IMG/VR virus record: IMGVR_UViG_3300037461_000547
Coordinates: 17,332 to 81,331 of that record
Length of the DNA stretch: 64,000 nucleotides
Direction: 5' to 3' (one strand)
Source of the DNA: a virus
Lineage: Duplodnaviria > Caudoviricetes
How positions within the stretch are numbered: position 1 is the first letter of the stretch; every line of letters starts with the position of its first letter. The notes below the pieces were generated by a model that saw only the letters and a program-made list of their open reading frames with translations, had not been told where the DNA came from and ran no database searches. Made by a program: the position numbers and the translations under genes. This document shows, one piece after another, positions 1 to 6,653 of this stretch.

Positions 1-1
1 C

Positions 2-18
2 CATCTTACTCTCCTTCC
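2..18 (-). promoter_or_regulatory. RBS and start codon of a minus-strand gene running off the left edge
   Basis: Minus strand reads GGAAGGAGAGTAAGATG: AAGGAG then ATG at 4..2. Confidence 0.5.
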
Positions 19-22
19 ACAA

Positions 23-69
23 CCCACACCCTGATTCATAGAGTCAGTGTTACTGGGTCAGGGTGTGGG
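23..69. other. Strong hairpin in divergent intergenic region
   Basis: CCCACACCCTGA (23-34) is the perfect inverted repeat of TCAGGGTGTGGG (58-69). Confidence 0.7.
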
Positions 70-171
70 CATACCTTTAGAGAGTCCCTTTTTAGGATTT
101 GGGCGGTGGTTAAACCACAAGATCATCCCCATCTCGTAGAAAGCGCTTCTGTCGCGTGAGAAGCTGTATTA

Positions 172-606
172 CAGGTAGCACAGTCACGTCGTACTGGTGG
201 AAAGAGAGGTCGCTATGTTCGCATTAGATTTAGGGCCAGTACCGAGTGAAGAAGAGTGTCAACAGTTCGGTACAGTTTCCTATGACGCTCTCCGAGCATG
301 GAAAGAGTGTCAAGCATTCCAGCACCAGTTAGAACGCCAATTCAAAAAAGAATTAACAGAAGCTAATCCCAAAGCACCAGCACCAAAGATCATCAGAATC
401 GCTGTCCACAAAGAACCTGAAGGTTACTATGAAGTAGTTGTCAAAGTAGAAGACGGCGCAAGTGATGATGTAATTGCTCTGGCGTACACCATAGAAGAAA
501 ATCTACCACAACACTGGGACAAAGAAGCTAAAGATGAACTAAAAAGAATAGAATGATTTATTAAATCAGTACGACACTACCTGTGCTGCAGGTAGCACAG
601 TCACGT
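172..606 (+). repeat. 18-bp direct repeat flanking the first ORF
   Basis: CAGGTAGCACAGTCACGT identical at 172-189 and 589-606. Confidence 0.95.
215..556 (+). CDS. Hypothetical phage protein (acidic)
   Basis: Open frame 197-556; GAGG RBS favours ATG 215; resembles a recurrent phage hypothetical (LGPVPSEEECQQ...YYEVVV...HWD). Confidence 0.8.
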   Translation: MFALDLGPVPSEEECQQFGTVSYDALRAWKECQAFQHQLERQFKKELTEANPKAPAPKIIRIAVHKEPEGYYEVVVKVEDGASDDVIALAYTIEENLPQHWDKEAKDELKRIE

Positions 607-628
607 TAAGCGTCCTGTCGCCATTGGA

Positions 629-675
629 AGGCCTGTGGGGAAACTCACAATACCCCAACGGGGTAGAAAGGCCTA
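629..675 (+). other. Local three-way-junction leader upstream of the ParB-like gene
   Basis: AGGCC/GGCCT closing stem, TGTGGG-GAAA-CTCACA GNRA hairpin, TACCCC-AAC-GGGGTA hairpin, ending 3 nt before ATG 679. Confidence 0.55.
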
Positions 676-678
676 ACA

Positions 679-1953
679 ATGGCTAAAGCTAAATCGATCT
701 TTGAGTCAATGACGCAAGAAGATATGCAGAAGCTGATCGATGCGTCAGAAGTGACGCCTGCGGGTCAGATTATGTATCAAGACGGTTTCATTGACCCTGA
801 AGCCGAGGGCAAAGACCTTAAGTACGACTGGGACGCACAACCCAGAGAAACGACAGATGGAAGAGGGTTGGTCGATTCTATTCTTCGTTTAGGATTGATT
901 GAACCTCCAACACTGGCGTTGTACGGTGGTGATGACGTCCCAGAAGTAGTTCGTGGACATCGTAGAATCGACGCCACGAAAATCAGTAAGACAGAACACC
1001 CAGAAGATTACAAGCGTATTTTCCCCAACGGTGTTCCTGTCAAGATTGCCGTCGGTAAAGTGGTCAATGGTAATCGGGTGGATTTAACGCACAAAGACAT
1101 CTTTCTTCTGCGTGCGGACCACGATTTGGACTCTCTCAAAGAATCCTTACATTCAAAGATTGAGTGCTACAAAATGGTATCCCCGCTGTTTCGCGCTGGG
1201 TTCACTTATGCAGAAGTAATTGAGAATACGTGGCGCACTGTGTCGCGTATCTTAAGCACAAAGTATAATGAACTCAAAGATGAAATCGCAAAGACTCCTG
1301 CACGTAGCGTTCAACTTCAAATACTGGAAAGAAGCCAACATGGGAATTACCAGTTTTTGAAGGCTTTGAGTGATTCACCGAATCTCCTTGTAGAAGCATG
1401 GATGAACGGTGAACGGAACAAAGGTCCTAAATTCACACAAGCACAGATCAAAGGTCTGGCTTCAAAGTTCAAAAGTCTTCAGGCGGATGCGGGCAAAACT
1501 GCCGGTGCAGACGCATTAACTCAAGAAAATCCTGGCGATGCTTGGATTAAAGAGTTCAATGATGTCTTCACAGAAATCAGTGTGCCTAAAGAAGCCAAAG
1601 AAGCCGGTCCAAAAATGGCAAAACGTGGCAAGATTGAAGAAATGCTCATTGCTGTTTCTTCAAAGACTGCACGCTTGGCTTTCCAATCTGTTCTCGGTGT
1701 GGAGAACGCAGAGAAACTGTTGAAAAACACCTATGACAAAGATGTCGCTGTGTTTGAATCAATCCGTGAATCTGTCCCCAGCTTCGTAGAATTCGTGCTG
1801 ATCAATGCGCCCCTAATGGAGCAAGACATTACCAAATCCGATGTTAAGAAATTGACAGAAGTGCTTGGTCTTGAATCTGCTCACAGTAAAGCGGCCCAAG
1901 CTGCTGCGAAGGGTGGCCGTTCAGCGAAACAAGAAACCGCAAAAGCAAAGTAA
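679..1953 (+). CDS. ParB/Srx-like N-terminal domain protein
   Basis: SILRLGLIEPPTL...VVRGHRRIDA matches ParB-N boxes including the GxxRxxA motif. Confidence 0.7.
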   Translation: MAKAKSIFESMTQEDMQKLIDASEVTPAGQIMYQDGFIDPEAEGKDLKYDWDAQPRETTDGRGLVDSILRLGLIEPPTLALYGGDDVPEVVRGHRRIDATKISKTEHPEDYKRIFPNGVPVKIAVGKVVNGNRVDLTHKDIFLLRADHDLDSLKESLHSKIECYKMVSPLFRAGFTYAEVIENTWRTVSRILSTKYNELKDEIAKTPARSVQLQILERSQHGNYQFLKALSDSPNLLVEAWMNGERNKGPKFTQAQIKGLASKFKSLQADAGKTAGADALTQENPGDAWIKEFNDVFTEISVPKEAKEAGPKMAKRGKIEEMLIAVSSKTARLAFQSVLGVENAEKLLKNTYDKDVAVFESIRESVPSFVEFVLINAPLMEQDITKSDVKKLTEVLGLESAHSKAAQAAAKGGRSAKQETAKAK

Positions 1954-2021
1954 ACGTGCTTAAATAGAACACCCTGCGGGTCTTCCAATGGCGGCAGACG
2001 CAGACTATATGGGAGGCCAAA

Positions 2022-2213
2022 ATGCGTAAAGTCATAGAAACTTTGCTTCGGATTCTTCGAATCCATAAGAAGCAATATATCACCTATCAAAGACGTGCCG
2101 TTGACCCGTTGGAGTCAATGGTGAAAATGTATAAAAGGCAACCTTCAATTCGAGTACTGTTTCTATTAAGAAACACAACCAATGGATTACCAAAGTTGAA
2201 ACTGAAACGGTAA
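2022..2213 (+). CDS. Small basic hypothetical protein
   Basis: GGGAGG RBS 5 nt before ATG; 63 aa, K/R-rich. Confidence 0.7.
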   Translation: MRKVIETLLRILRIHKKQYITYQRRAVDPLESMVKMYKRQPSIRVLFLLRNTTNGLPKLKLKR

Positions 2214-2261
2214 AGAAGTAGACATAGTCTGCCGCTTAATGGCGACAGGAATCATCTATTA

Positions 2262-2373
2262 GGGGCGCAATTGTGTGGCGATGAGGATACATCGTTAAAA
2301 CACACAATGGGTTCAGAAAATACCCTTCCCAACGGATAAAAATTCGAGAACACGAATCCACGTGTTCCGCCCC
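2262..2373 (+). ncRNA. Putative multi-way-junction RNA domain
   Basis: GGGGCG/CGCCCC closing stem; ATTGTGTG/CACACAAT carrying GCGATG/CATCGT; GGGT/ACCC; GAACACG/CGTGTTC hairpins; no ORF. Confidence 0.6.
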
Positions 2374-2381
2374 GTCTATAC

Positions 2382-2598
2382 GCCCCCATAGCTCAATTGG
2401 TAGAGCGTCGAGTGTAGAAGCACAGGGAGATAATGCCGTGCCAATCGTAAGATTTGACGAATCTCTACGAAAAGGTTGTGGTCAATATGGGTTTGCTGCC
2501 CAGACCATCACGGAGAAATAATGCCCTGCTACCTTGAAGGCGTGCCCTGTAGGTTCGTCACTACGCTGGGCCTGTGGGTTCGAGTCCCACTGGGGGTA
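2382..2598 (+). ncRNA. Large tRNA-like RNA (217 nt) with expanded anticodon domain and long variable arm
   Basis: Acceptor GCCCCCA/TGGGGGT plus A73; D arm GCTC-AATTGGTA-GAGC; TCGAG/CTTGA stem enclosing 120 nt; T arm GTGGG-TTCGAGT-CCCAC; no encoded CCA. Confidence 0.85.
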
Positions 2599-2631
2599 TT
2601 TGGTGACAGGACGACAGGAAGGACGGTCACT

Positions 2632-2901
2632 ATGGCAGAAACAGCACCTAAATCTTCGAAAGAAGTGATGCGTGAAATCGCGGAGAAAAATACTATCCCA
2701 GAAGGATATTCTCTCGAACAAGAAATACACATATCGCTCGACGATACTTTGATTTCAGAGGTGGCGTGCCAACTCCTACGGTATAGAGTTCGCGCCATTC
2801 GTTTAGATGGCGAGTGGGAGTTACCAGAATGGGTGTATAAATCCGCAGAGGATATTGTTGATTCATACATCCATGAACACTTTATCCATCGTAAAAGATA
2901 A
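2632..2901 (+). CDS. Hypothetical protein (89 aa)
   Basis: AGGAAGGA RBS before ATG 2632; the upstream extension of the track ORF overlaps the tRNA-like RNA. Confidence 0.75.
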   Translation: MAETAPKSSKEVMREIAEKNTIPEGYSLEQEIHISLDDTLISEVACQLLRYRVRAIRLDGEWELPEWVYKSAEDIVDSYIHEHFIHRKR

Positions 2902-2984
2902 CCCTTAAGATGTCGTCAATCCTGTCACCCAATGACGGTAGGACGATAGAAAGTGAGGTGCATATGAATAGAGATAATCACTAA

Positions 2985-3518
2985 ATGTACGAAACCCTTG
3001 TATATCAAACCGTAGAAGGGGTGATTACAAGAATCGCGATTGTCAATTACAGTAGTGAAGTGTTCGGGTCATTGTTTGTGAATCCTGAATTTAAGAATAA
3101 GGATTGGCGCTCTCGCAAAATAGAGATTGTCGCAAATGATGCGTATTACTCTCCTTGTTGGATGTACCTTGATTTGGTTGCGGCACTTTCCAGACAATAT
3201 GGAAATGCCGTCCCATGGGGCACAGCCGATGTACTACATCGCGTTGTCCCACACGTGAGTAAAGCATACATAGAAAATTACACACATCTTATGTTGCTTG
3301 ACTACCGGACAGAGATTGATCGCGTCCATCATCTGGACTTGGTAGCGAACAAACAAATCAAGACCGTCTATGAACGCGACATAACATGCCGGAACATTCA
3401 CTTGTCAAAGATAATTACGATTCAACCAATCACAGACTACGAGAATGAACACGTCTATGAAATCGCACAACAGACGTTAGAGAAAAACATGTACCCTGTA
3501 AAAGTCGTCCTGCAATAA
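2985..3518 (+). CDS. Hypothetical protein
   Basis: 177-aa ORF followed by a terminator; no recognisable motif. Confidence 0.8.
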   Translation: MYETLVYQTVEGVITRIAIVNYSSEVFGSLFVNPEFKNKDWRSRKIEIVANDAYYSPCWMYLDLVAALSRQYGNAVPWGTADVLHRVVPHVSKAYIENYTHLMLLDYRTEIDRVHHLDLVANKQIKTVYERDITCRNIHLSKIITIQPITDYENEHVYEIAQQTLEKNMYPVKVVLQ

Positions 3519-3520
3519 CC

Positions 3521-3559
3521 AAACGCCCGTATCTCGTTATGAGGTACGGGCGTTTTTTT
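3521..3559 (+). terminator. Intrinsic terminator of the + strand operon
   Basis: AAACGCCCGTA...TACGGGCGTTT stem followed by T7. Confidence 0.9.
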
Positions 3560-3604
3560 ATTGATTCAACGCATCGTTAGTGTGATTTTCAAAAATCAGA
3601 ATAT

Positions 3605-3620
3605 GATTGCACAATCATAA
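3605..3620. promoter_or_regulatory. Palindromic site GATTG-N2-CAATC(R)TAA, copy 1 of 3
   Basis: GATTGCACAATCATAA; also at 3924-3942 and 34970-34988. Confidence 0.55.
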
Positions 3621-3649
3621 CCCGATTACTGTTATTGTATTCTTTTTAT

Positions 3650-3674
3650 AAAAAAAAAAAAAAAAAAAAAAAAA
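3650..3674. repeat. Poly(A) tract (25 nt)
   Basis: Direct count of the A run. Confidence 0.9.
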
Positions 3675-3729
3675 TAATATAAAGAATAGGAACTACCCCT
3701 AATCGGTCATTTTCAGTAATGTGAAAATT

Positions 3730-3793
3730 ATCACAACACACCCACCGCCCGCTGCCCATCACAACACGCCCATCACAACACACCCACCGCCCG
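3730..3793. repeat. A/C-rich direct repeats
   Basis: ATCACAACACACCCACCGCCCG at 3730-3751 and 3772-3793; ATCACAACAC three times. Confidence 0.9.
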
Positions 3794-3865
3794 TAGAACG
3801 GTTAAGCAACGGTTGCTTTGCCCTTCAGAGCTTGAAACACCACACCACCCACCAAAACTACCAAT

Positions 3866-3902
3866 AAAAAAAGGTCGCTTCCTATCTCAAGGAGAGCGAC
3901 CT
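3866..3902 (-). terminator. Intrinsic terminator of the long - strand block
   Basis: AGGTCGCT/AGCGACCT stem followed by T7 on the minus strand, downstream of dut. Confidence 0.85.
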
Positions 3903-3954
3903 ACAACCACGATGCTACAATCAGATTGCACAATCATAATCGCATCTGGCACAA

Positions 3955-4383
3955 TCACATCTGAGAAACAATCCCACCACTCGCACCCCGACACGTTGCT
4001 ACGGGATGTGCGCAATCCACTTTCTCCAATACTGGGGTATGGACCGGTACTATTACGATTTGTGCAATCGGTTCACCTTTAGCAATATAAATCGCTTGGT
4101 CCATAATATTGAATATTTTCACCAGAATCTCACCTTGATAGTCCGCGTCAATCACGCCTGCACCGATTAAGAAGTTTGATTTACTTTTCGGCCAGACGAA
4201 GGCCACTGTACCTTTTTCCCAAGCACACTTCACACCTGTCCGCACAATCTGGTAATTATGCGGATACACAATCGTATCATGTAAAGCACAGACGTCGAAT
4301 CCGGCGTCCGTAGGATGCTTACGTTTAGGGTCAGTTGCGAACTCTTCCACTTGGTACTTACAAACTTTCTTCCTTTTCCACAT
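3955..4383 (-). CDS. dut: dUTPase (trimeric type)
   Basis: DAGFD, PKSKS, GAGVIDADYQGEI and RGASG motifs; start refined to ATG 4383. Confidence 0.95.
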   Translation of the reverse strand: MWKRKKVCKYQVEEFATDPKRKHPTDAGFDVCALHDTIVYPHNYQIVRTGVKCAWEKGTVAFVWPKSKSNFLIGAGVIDADYQGEILVKIFNIMDQAIYIAKGEPIAQIVIVPVHTPVLEKVDCAHPVATCRGASGGIVSQM

Positions 4384-4387
4384 ACCT

Positions 4388-4687
4388 TTACCTTTCCACC
4401 GCCCAACATCGGACGTCGAAACGTTGTCCTTTTCGGATTCGCTCAATCTTAAACACACGTTTAATAATTGAGTAACAAAGAGCTATCGTGTCTTCACCGT
4501 CTGCTACGAGAATAAATACTTCAGATTTTTTGACAACTTTATAACGACCCTTTGGATTCATTGTAATCTCGGCACGGAATTTACAATGGCCTCTCGGAAG
4601 ACCAAACATTTCAACGCGCCAATAGCTTGTGATAAATTGTCGCCTGTAAAAAATAGTGTAATTAATTTTTGTGAATGTCCGTATCAT
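4388..4687 (-). CDS. Hypothetical protein
   Basis: 99-aa ORF tightly packed between neighbours. Confidence 0.65.
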   Translation of the reverse strand: MIRTFTKINYTIFYRRQFITSYWRVEMFGLPRGHCKFRAEITMNPKGRYKVVKKSEVFILVADGEDTIALCYSIIKRVFKIERIRKGQRFDVRCWAVER

Positions 4688-6134: not shown

Positions 6135-6472
6135 TGTTCAGTCTCCTTTCCTGTTCCATTACAGTCTGGACATTTAATAAAATGCCATCCATCACACTTT
6201 TCGAAAGCTGATTTCCAGTACCTTGTAAAAAGCCTTTTTAATCTCCATCGGATTGACCGACAGGTTTTATTATGTTCTTTTAACCATTCGGCATTTTCAT
6301 AGTCAGTATTATGCTCATCACTTATTGTCAAATTATTACCTGTTGGCTGTTTCAAATGATGTATGACAGGGTAAAACCCTACGCCATCACAGTGTCCCTT
6401 GCACATCGTTTCTGGATTCGGATAAGGTATCCCTAATGCTTCGTATCGGTCTGTAAATTCGTATTCACTCAT
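6131..6472 (-). CDS. DnaJ-type zinc-finger (CxxCxGxG) protein
   Basis: CKGHCDGVG...CPDCNGTG. Confidence 0.75.
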   Translation of the reverse strand: MSEYEFTDRYEALGIPYPNPETMCKGHCDGVGFYPVIHHLKQPTGNNLTISDEHNTDYENAEWLKEHNKTCRSIRWRLKRLFTRYWKSAFEKCDGWHFIKCPDCNGTGKETEQ

Positions 6473-6653
6473 TTTTCATTCTCCTTTATTCCGTATGTTT
6501 TATGAATTTCATCAAGCGGAGAAATTTCGATTATCCCCTGCCGCAACACGTTCGGCAGACTTCGGCTGCCGTTGATGTAGTCGATTCCGGTGCGGTGTAA
6601 AATCCGTAAGGGACTAATCCTTTGCCCTCACAGACCGGACATTTTTGGTACAT
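6469..6653 (-). pseudogene. CxxCxGxG zinc-finger gene, truncated or frameshifted
   Basis: MYQKCPVCEGKG...CRTCCGRG then TAA; one extra G in the G4 run gives GIIEISPLDEIHKTYGIKENEK* ending in an ATGA overlap with the next gene. Confidence 0.6.

Follow-up and report, generated by a model that had tools for sequence, protein, structure and literature searches.

In the early mRNA of phage T7, host RNase III separates the cistrons at local intergenic hairpins, and the hairpin remnants stabilise the products. Stems of at least two helical turns are the natural substrate of this double-strand-specific enzyme. Helices between distant flanks are found around rRNAs, whose leader-trailer helices span 25-40 bp, covary, and contain boxC as an invariant core (PMC10250234). 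In Bacillus subtilis, RNase III sites formed by long-range intramolecular pairing are documented in mRNAs (PMC11780869), the 5' and 3' untranslated regions (UTRs) of hbs pair over 14 bp (PMC5737220), and pairing in icaR occludes the ribosome-binding site (RBS) (PMC3868564). In T4-type phages, PeSL cassettes are repeated intergenic elements that bound small exchangeable genes of no assigned function in a hyperplastic early region (PMC2839356). Full-text literature searches returned no account of phage mRNAs in which stems enclose genes. Here we describe an operon at the start of a 64,000-nucleotide stretch of phage DNA (hereafter the window; bases 17332-81331 of the 81,331-bp virus record IMGVR_UViG_3300037461_000547, with an estimated completeness of 89%) in which individual genes are enclosed by long complementary flanks, which are probably helices in the messenger RNA.

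The operon resembles each of these systems in part. As around rRNA, long-range flank helices follow one another in series, an invariant core is combined with a covarying remainder, the flank sequences vary while the pairing is kept, and the stem lengths match those of the leader-trailer helices. In contrast to rRNA operons, the loops hold protein cistrons with their RBS (and, in one relative, a tRNA-shaped RNA) instead of rRNA, the setting is a phage early operon with five or more tandem units, and cleavage is what we infer. The likeness to T7 would lie in the splitting of a polycistronic phage early transcript by host RNase III; unlike the T7 hairpins, the two strands of each stem flank the gene, so that both ends of the product would remain paired. 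The B. subtilis sites, hbs and icaR likewise join distant mRNA segments or ends over hundreds of nucleotides and thereby control RNase access, RNase III cleavage or translation, which means that parts of the mechanism we propose exist in bacteria. However, those are single cases with shorter pairing, whereas here a tandem array extends across a phage clade and the RBS is mostly free. The PeSL cassettes share with this operon the repeated intergenic elements that bound small exchangeable genes, but they are direct repeats, each with a sigma-70 promoter and a local hairpin terminator, whereas the arms described here are inverted, private to each unit and without promoter consensus, and the operon as a whole has one terminator.

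Long complementary flanks enclose the genes of one operon

The operon runs from ORF0, an open reading frame (ORF) upstream of the window, through ORF A, gene B, ORF C and ORF D to ORF E (Table 1; negative coordinates denote positions upstream of window position 1). A first-pass annotation of the window, made from the letters alone, had proposed that each gene is looped out by complementary RNA flanks. Checked base by base, the pairings that it gave for four genes proved exact: 188-197/566-575 around A (nine Watson-Crick pairs and one G:U), 615-640/1972-1997 around B (26 contiguous base pairs, 21 Watson-Crick and five G:U, with no mismatch), 2000-2008/2224-2232 around C, and 2602-2616/2911-2929 around D, in which 2602-2611/2920-2929 and 2612-2616/2911-2915 form 15 Watson-Crick pairs around a 4-nt bulge. 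A second helix around A, which had been placed at 172-183/577-587, was out of register; the same region pairs either as 164-178/577-591 (12 Watson-Crick pairs, two G:U and one mismatch) or, in the minimum free energy (MFE) fold, as 175-183/581-589 within the composite helix 144-198/565-612. The stem around ORF0, absent from the first-pass annotation, has 24 bp with one G:U pair. Its 5' arm (the stem region, window -428 to -4, corresponds to L011 6903-7327) is also complementary to 163-192 and 581-608, both of them copies of the same arm family. All arms lie on opposite sides of their ORF, and the loops in the window measure 215-1331 nt. The stems of ORF0 (24 bp) and B (26 bp) and the composite stems of A and D (about 23-45 bp) reach at least two helical turns (at least 20 bp), and C, whose private stem has 9 bp and is weak when taken alone, falls short of this. 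An alternative register for the C stem is found at 1992-1999/2227-2234.

To place these stems in the context of the whole 81-kb genome, we computed for each of 103 ORFs the energy of the best RNA duplex (RNAduplex) between its two 80-nt flanks. The four lowest energies belong to ORF0 (-60.9 kcal/mol), B (-59.4), A (-55.3) and C (-43.8), all neighbours in the operon, compared with a genome-wide median of -21.5 kcal/mol (sd 8.4). For D, once its start was corrected, the energies range from -33.7 kcal/mol with 45-nt flanks to -53.4 kcal/mol with 80-nt flanks. The score of the B stem was reached by none of 200 shuffles. Moreover, when duplexes within 3 kb were sought across the genome with a symmetric score that treats G:T and A:C equally, only five long ones emerged, four of them in the operon. 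The minus-strand genes that ranked next in the flank test showed scattered weak pairing and no stems, and the arms are confined to the operon, with none dispersed elsewhere in the genome.

ORF E differs from the other genes. The pairing suggested for it (2938-2947/3504-3513) exists as described, with eight Watson-Crick and two G:U pairs; its enclosing role did not stand. Since the E flanks rank 9th of 103, the 3' partner lies within the coding sequence, and the E homologues of the nearest relatives (L003, L004 and L007; 21-24% identity) have no enclosing stem, the pairing around E looks like chance.

The stem around gene B is retained in distant relatives

Homologues of B were collected by database searches (49-59% identity) and by profile search (20-31% identity), and 12 lineages were compared: the window, L003, L004, L007, L008, L134, L135, L137, L138, L139, L140 and L141. 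B is the best-conserved gene of the operon and is present in all relatives, and none of the small genes between B and E is conserved among them. In every one of the 12 lineages with enough flanking sequence, across B identities from 59% down to 21%, B lies within a stem of 15-34 bp. The gap from its 5' arm to the start codon measures 16-51 nt, and that from the stop codon to its 3' arm 5-55 nt. The five closest lineages share 12 invariant pairs at the start of the stem (CTGTCGCCATTG), and 8 of the next 14 columns carry two-sided compensatory changes with almost complete pairing. Between more distant lineages the arm sequences show no relationship. The flanks nevertheless fit their own partners: cognate duplexes average -55.5 kcal/mol versus -27.7 kcal/mol (sd 6.1) for non-cognate ones, in which an upstream flank was combined with the downstream flank from a different phage. 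Covariation of the kind that the first-pass annotation had suggested looking for in homologous loci is present, and these results support the view that the pairing was selected rather than accidental, being kept across the 12 lineages through compensating changes.

Further searches added little to this set. No match to B came up at the DNA or protein level among 50,697 phage records, a scan of viral contigs with the 14-mer CTCTGTCGCCATTG gave single chance matches only, and scanning viral and genome collections for protein patterns brought no relatives to light. The corresponding scan of metagenomes returned the already-known loci plus one short fragment.

Nearly every loop holds a single cistron

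The small genes near B are mostly non-homologous among the phages, yet each sits in its own stem of 20-35 bp. In nearly every case the loop consists of one ORF that fills about 90-98% of it. Nothing but a Shine-Dalgarno-like sequence occupies the 5' gap (6-50 nt). On the 3' side the gap is 0-55 nt, mostly less than 12 nt; in most units the RBS is free, not sequestered. Consecutive units are separated by 0-4 nt and lack flanking direct duplications, with four stems in a row in L135 and five in L004. The cleanest case of this layout is found in L141 (1698-4089), where four head-to-tail stems of 28-31 bp are joined by 2-nt linkers between the arms. In L140, two long complementary pairs around the ParB-like gene cross each other (506-536/1771-1801 and 570-592/1810-1832) and must be either mutually exclusive or pseudoknotted. 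The relatives also contain a few 'empty' stems with loops of 20-146 nt, among them local long hairpins with loops of 20-80 nt. The outer parts of the arms fall into a few conserved families that are common to units with different cargo (CCACAGCCCACTG, GTGACTGCATTACGT and CTGTCGCCATTG).

The cargo is not always a protein gene. In L003, a stem of 21-23 bp (6332-6354/6550-6572) holds a tRNA-shaped RNA (6354-6547) and no protein gene, and stacks on its acceptor stem. The window encodes a counterpart next to the D stem (Table 1), and both RNAs carry a branched structure of about 100-130 nt in the position of the anticodon arm. ARAGORN detects the tRNA-shaped RNA in intron mode only and with an implausible anticodon arm, and Rfam gives no match to it. 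Between an extra copy of the core motif and this RNA lies a structured non-coding stretch (window 2262-2373).

The first-pass annotation had likened the locus to a pre-rRNA processing system, possibly one yielding circularised units, and had alternatively suggested one large structured RNA (about 900 nt of non-coding sequence) with ORFs inserted in its loops. The head-to-tail flank stems, one unit each, bear out the likeness to pre-rRNA. That the arms adjoin head to tail and that the operon contains a tRNA-shaped RNA would also suit a single structured RNA or ligated circles, but the arms are private to each unit and differ among relatives, arms and units having been exchanged between them, and we see no conserved tertiary or cross pairing from arm to arm. 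At gathering thresholds the window has no Rfam match, and permissive E-values bring up none for positions 1-4000 or for the five related loci examined. No RtcB-type ligase was found in the phage, which speaks against circularised units, and no other observation argues for them. We consider both a large structured RNA and ligation into circular RNAs hardly credible.

The pairing probably acts in the transcript

We counted pairs in 40 non-redundant stems, with stem ends set by a strand-symmetric score, and obtained 886 Watson-Crick pairs, 54 G:U, 24 A:C and 24 others. G:U thus makes up 69% of the G:U and A:C pairs, compared with 52.6% expected from the composition of the arms (p=0.004). For the B stems alone the ratio is 20:4 (p=0.003). 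In a set of stems with G:U-extended ends, the sense duplex is more stable than the antisense duplex in 26 of 36 (Wilcoxon, p=0.004). That G:U outnumbers A:C in the coding strand points to the transcript as the level at which the pairing acts, which agrees with what the first-pass annotation had concluded from the non-Watson-Crick pairs of the window. Several other observations favour the RNA level as well. The orientation of B relative to its flanks is identical in 12 out of 12 lineages, the arms are confined to the operon, promoter-like sites within the unit are no more frequent than in shuffled sequence, a single terminator-like site on the plus strand (3513-3563) serves the unit, and an RNA gene occupies one of the stems. 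Matches to a boxA-like antitermination motif do not exceed chance. Together, these sequence features suggest that the stems are probably helices in messenger RNA.

An alternative explanation is that the arms are cassette boundaries in DNA, comparable to the PeSL recombination linkers, and that their complementarity arose by gene conversion or shared descent. In line with this, gene content differs among phages that share the arm families CCACAGCCCACTG, GTGACTGCATTACGT and CTGTCGCCATTG, 'empty' stems exist, the stems of the small genes show only a weak G:U bias, and PeSL elements are known to mediate such shuffling in T4-type phages (PMC2839356). However, homologous exchange requires repeats in direct orientation from one genome to the other, unlike inverted repeats inside a single genome, and recombination between inverted arms would flip the enclosed genes, at odds with the constant orientation of B. 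Nor does this explanation account for inner arm halves that are private to each unit and covary, for the overall G:U excess on the coding strand, for the restriction of the arms to this operon, or for the lack of promoter or terminator modules within them. We therefore regard cassette boundaries as an improbable primary function, while exchange of cassettes may well be a true by-product of the conserved arms.

Two classes of mobile or switchable DNA were also considered and rejected. Terminal inverted repeats of insertion sequences (IS) or miniature inverted-repeat transposable elements (MITEs) were discarded given that the arms occur only in the operon, flanking duplications are absent, and the enclosed ORFs have no match to a transposase family. 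An invertible segment of the Hin/Gin type was discarded given the single orientation of B in 12 lineages and source-run contigs without alternative joints.

Gene B and the repeated core motif

The label 'ParB-like', given to B in the first-pass annotation, is upheld by a profile match to Spo0J (1vz0, E=4e-8) that covers the GHRR motif of the N-terminal CTPase-type domain, and by an AlphaFold model (pLDDT 85) for which Foldseek returns ParB, Noc and KorB at E values of about 1e-4. B itself falls below the Pfam threshold. The profile match and the predicted fold support the assignment of B as a ParB/Noc/KorB-like protein. Its family comprises 64 representatives at E<=0.001 and is not recognised by Pfam; the members that we fetched all lie near the divergent start of an operon adjoining terminase genes.

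The core CTGTCGCCATTG occurs five to six times around B and in both orientations (window 613-627, 1985-1997, 2236-2250, 2598-2613 and 2920-2945). The copy at 2236-2250 is complementary to 613-625, which makes it an alternative partner for the 5' arm of B. In three relatives the core forms local 20-bp palindromes such as CTGTCGCCAAATGGCTACAG (L003 6564-6584, L004 6538-6557 and L007 2600-2620). Since B is ParB/Noc/KorB-like, the core could double as a candidate DNA site of B in addition to its role in the stem. More generally, the sharing of outer-arm families across different cargo, the repetition of the core both ways and the ParB-like nature of B leave room for a role at the DNA level, although these points do not explain why the inner halves of the stems are private and covary.

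Taken further, the 12-nt core could be a parS-like centromere or an operator array bound by B, the complementarity of the flanks being secondary. The predicted fold of B, the repeated and palindromic copies of the core, and the fact that the repeat families switch along with the B lineage all fit this possibility. It would, however, leave unexplained the 14-bp private and covarying extension of the stem, the stems around unrelated neighbouring genes, and the 20:4 bias of G:U over A:C in the B stems, and each arm carries only a half-site. We judge it very improbable that a binding site of this kind is the primary reason for the complementarity.

Genomic context of the operon

The operon forms the start of a gene block on the plus strand, with the small and large terminase genes diverging from it on the minus strand, in a genome with a G+C content of 39%. 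No cultured phage has a large terminase more than 27% identical to the one encoded here, which places the phage in an unstudied lineage. A sequencing-run search pointed to one DNA run carrying the stretch, from a wetland metagenome that is probably its source, and listed no RNA run as containing it. The contigs of this source run, to which the comparison was confined, are identical in sequence to the stretch and show no alternative joints or variants. Pfam and PHROGs gave no match for A, B, C, D or E. The features of the operon are collected in Table 1. The 5' arm of the local hairpin at 23-69 resembles the CCACA(G/C)CCCAC arm family of the relatives. Past the operon terminator lie a run of 24 A (3650-3673) and three copies of a 22-nt repeat (ATCACAACACACCCACCGCCCG; 3730-3793), around which the public contig of the source run ends. 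A dUTPase gene (3955-4458, minus strand; Pfam E=1.7e-26) is the first of the adjoining minus-strand block.

Table 1. Features of the stem-bearing operon, in window coordinates
Feature	Position	Strand	Remarks
ORF0, 118 aa	upstream of window; enclosed by -422..-399/-28..-5		First stem of the series
Local hairpin	23..69	+	12-bp perfect stem 23-34/58-69, 23-nt loop; no gene inside
5' arm, composite stem around ORF A	144..198	+	From MFE fold; RNAduplex -54.8 kcal/mol
RBS of ORF A	between 5' arm and ATG	+	AGAGAGG
ORF A, 113 aa	215..556	+	No family match; occupies 93% of loop
3' arm, stem around ORF A	565..612	+	Adjoins the next 5' arm
5' arm, B stem	615..640	+	Invariant core CTGTCGCCATTG, then 14-nt covarying extension
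Gene B, 424 aa	679..1953	+	Remote ParB/Noc/KorB-like
3' arm, B stem	1972..1997	+	Pairs with 615-640
5' arm, ORF C stem	2000..2008	+	9 Watson-Crick pairs with 2224..2232 (3' arm)
ORF C, 63 aa	2022..2213	+	GGAGG RBS; occupies 89% of loop
Extra reverse core copy	2236..2250	+	Perfectly complementary to 613-625
tRNA-shaped RNA	2382..2598	+	Canonical acceptor, D and T arms; about 130 nt replaces the anticodon arm
5' arm, composite ORF D stem	2597..2623	+	Includes reverse copy of core motif
ORF D, 89 aa	2632..2901	+	Occupies 92% of loop
3' arm, ORF D stem	2902..2934	+	About 23 bp overall; 4-nt bulge
ORF E, 177 aa	2985..3518	+	Final operon gene; homologues in L003, L004 and L007
Intrinsic terminator	3513..3563	+	16-bp G+C-rich stem, then T run

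A proposed model for the processing of the early transcript

We propose that the operon is read as one early transcript ending at the terminator downstream of E. The region just before each RBS would pair with the region just after the stop codon, with the stems arranged head to tail, and each cistron would therefore be the loop of its own stem of 20-35 bp. Folding could take place during transcription, as each 3' arm emerges and pairs with the waiting 5' arm of its unit. Host RNase III would then cut the duplexes of at least two turns and release monocistronic messages. In each message the inner half of the stem would keep the two ends clamped together, giving shelter from end-dependent RNases and insulation from neighbouring units. 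Such insulation would let the phage exchange early genes without upsetting their expression. We consider it an evenly balanced judgement, drawn from sequence comparison, that the helices form in one polycistronic early mRNA and are most likely cut by host RNase III into end-clamped messages.

It is important to point out that several observations weigh against this model. The G:U excess reaches significance only in the full set and in the B stems; among the small-gene stems, G:U and A:C stand at 34:20 (p=0.14). Three A:C mismatches are found in each of a few stems. The 9-bp private stem of C is too short for RNase III. Several arms have an outer part whose sequence is conserved and recurs in both orientations, which RNase III would not need. 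No RNase III gene was found in the phage, so the model relies on the enzyme of the host. Finally, the long-range folding that the first-pass annotation had called for gave a mixed picture: a 4-kb MFE fold contains the stems of ORF0, A and D and the E pairing, and in it the B stem is displaced by alternatives, forming in two out of three shorter contexts. MFE folding of translated kilobase-long RNAs is, however, an unreliable guide in either direction.

A related explanation is that the helices are real but remain uncut. They would then act as clamps or insulators that block exonucleases and 5'-end-dependent RNases, fix the context of the RBS, join stop and start codons for re-initiation, or tune translation by partial occlusion of the RBS. 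Every piece of evidence for RNA pairing applies to this explanation too, and some 5' arms end 6-17 nt before the start codon and so touch the ribosome footprint. Pairing of 5' and 3' UTRs in hbs and icaR can govern RNase access or translation (PMC5737220, PMC3868564), and rRNA leader-trailer helices also function independently of RNase III (PMC10250234). On the other hand, continuous duplexes of 20-35 bp would be hard to keep intact where RNase III is present, their typical lengths of two to three helical turns are well suited to that enzyme, and the RBS is free in most units. Uncut clamps thus appear unlikely to us, and we favour the processing of the transcript by RNase III.

Beyond this operon, we tentatively suggest that stem-enclosed cistrons are a general and previously undescribed principle of phage early operons, a possibility that we find plausible rather than probable. 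Each stem would serve as an 'expression socket' from which host RNase III excises any cargo, small RNAs included, as an end-clamped message, leaving early genes free to be exchanged. If this is true, phages apply the strategy of rRNA operons to cut and protect single protein-coding messages, which would explain how their hypervariable early regions tolerate a constant exchange of genes. The stems would also provide a sequence-only signature for locating early operons, and the limits of their units, in uncultured phages, and natural, portable insulator parts for synthetic operons.

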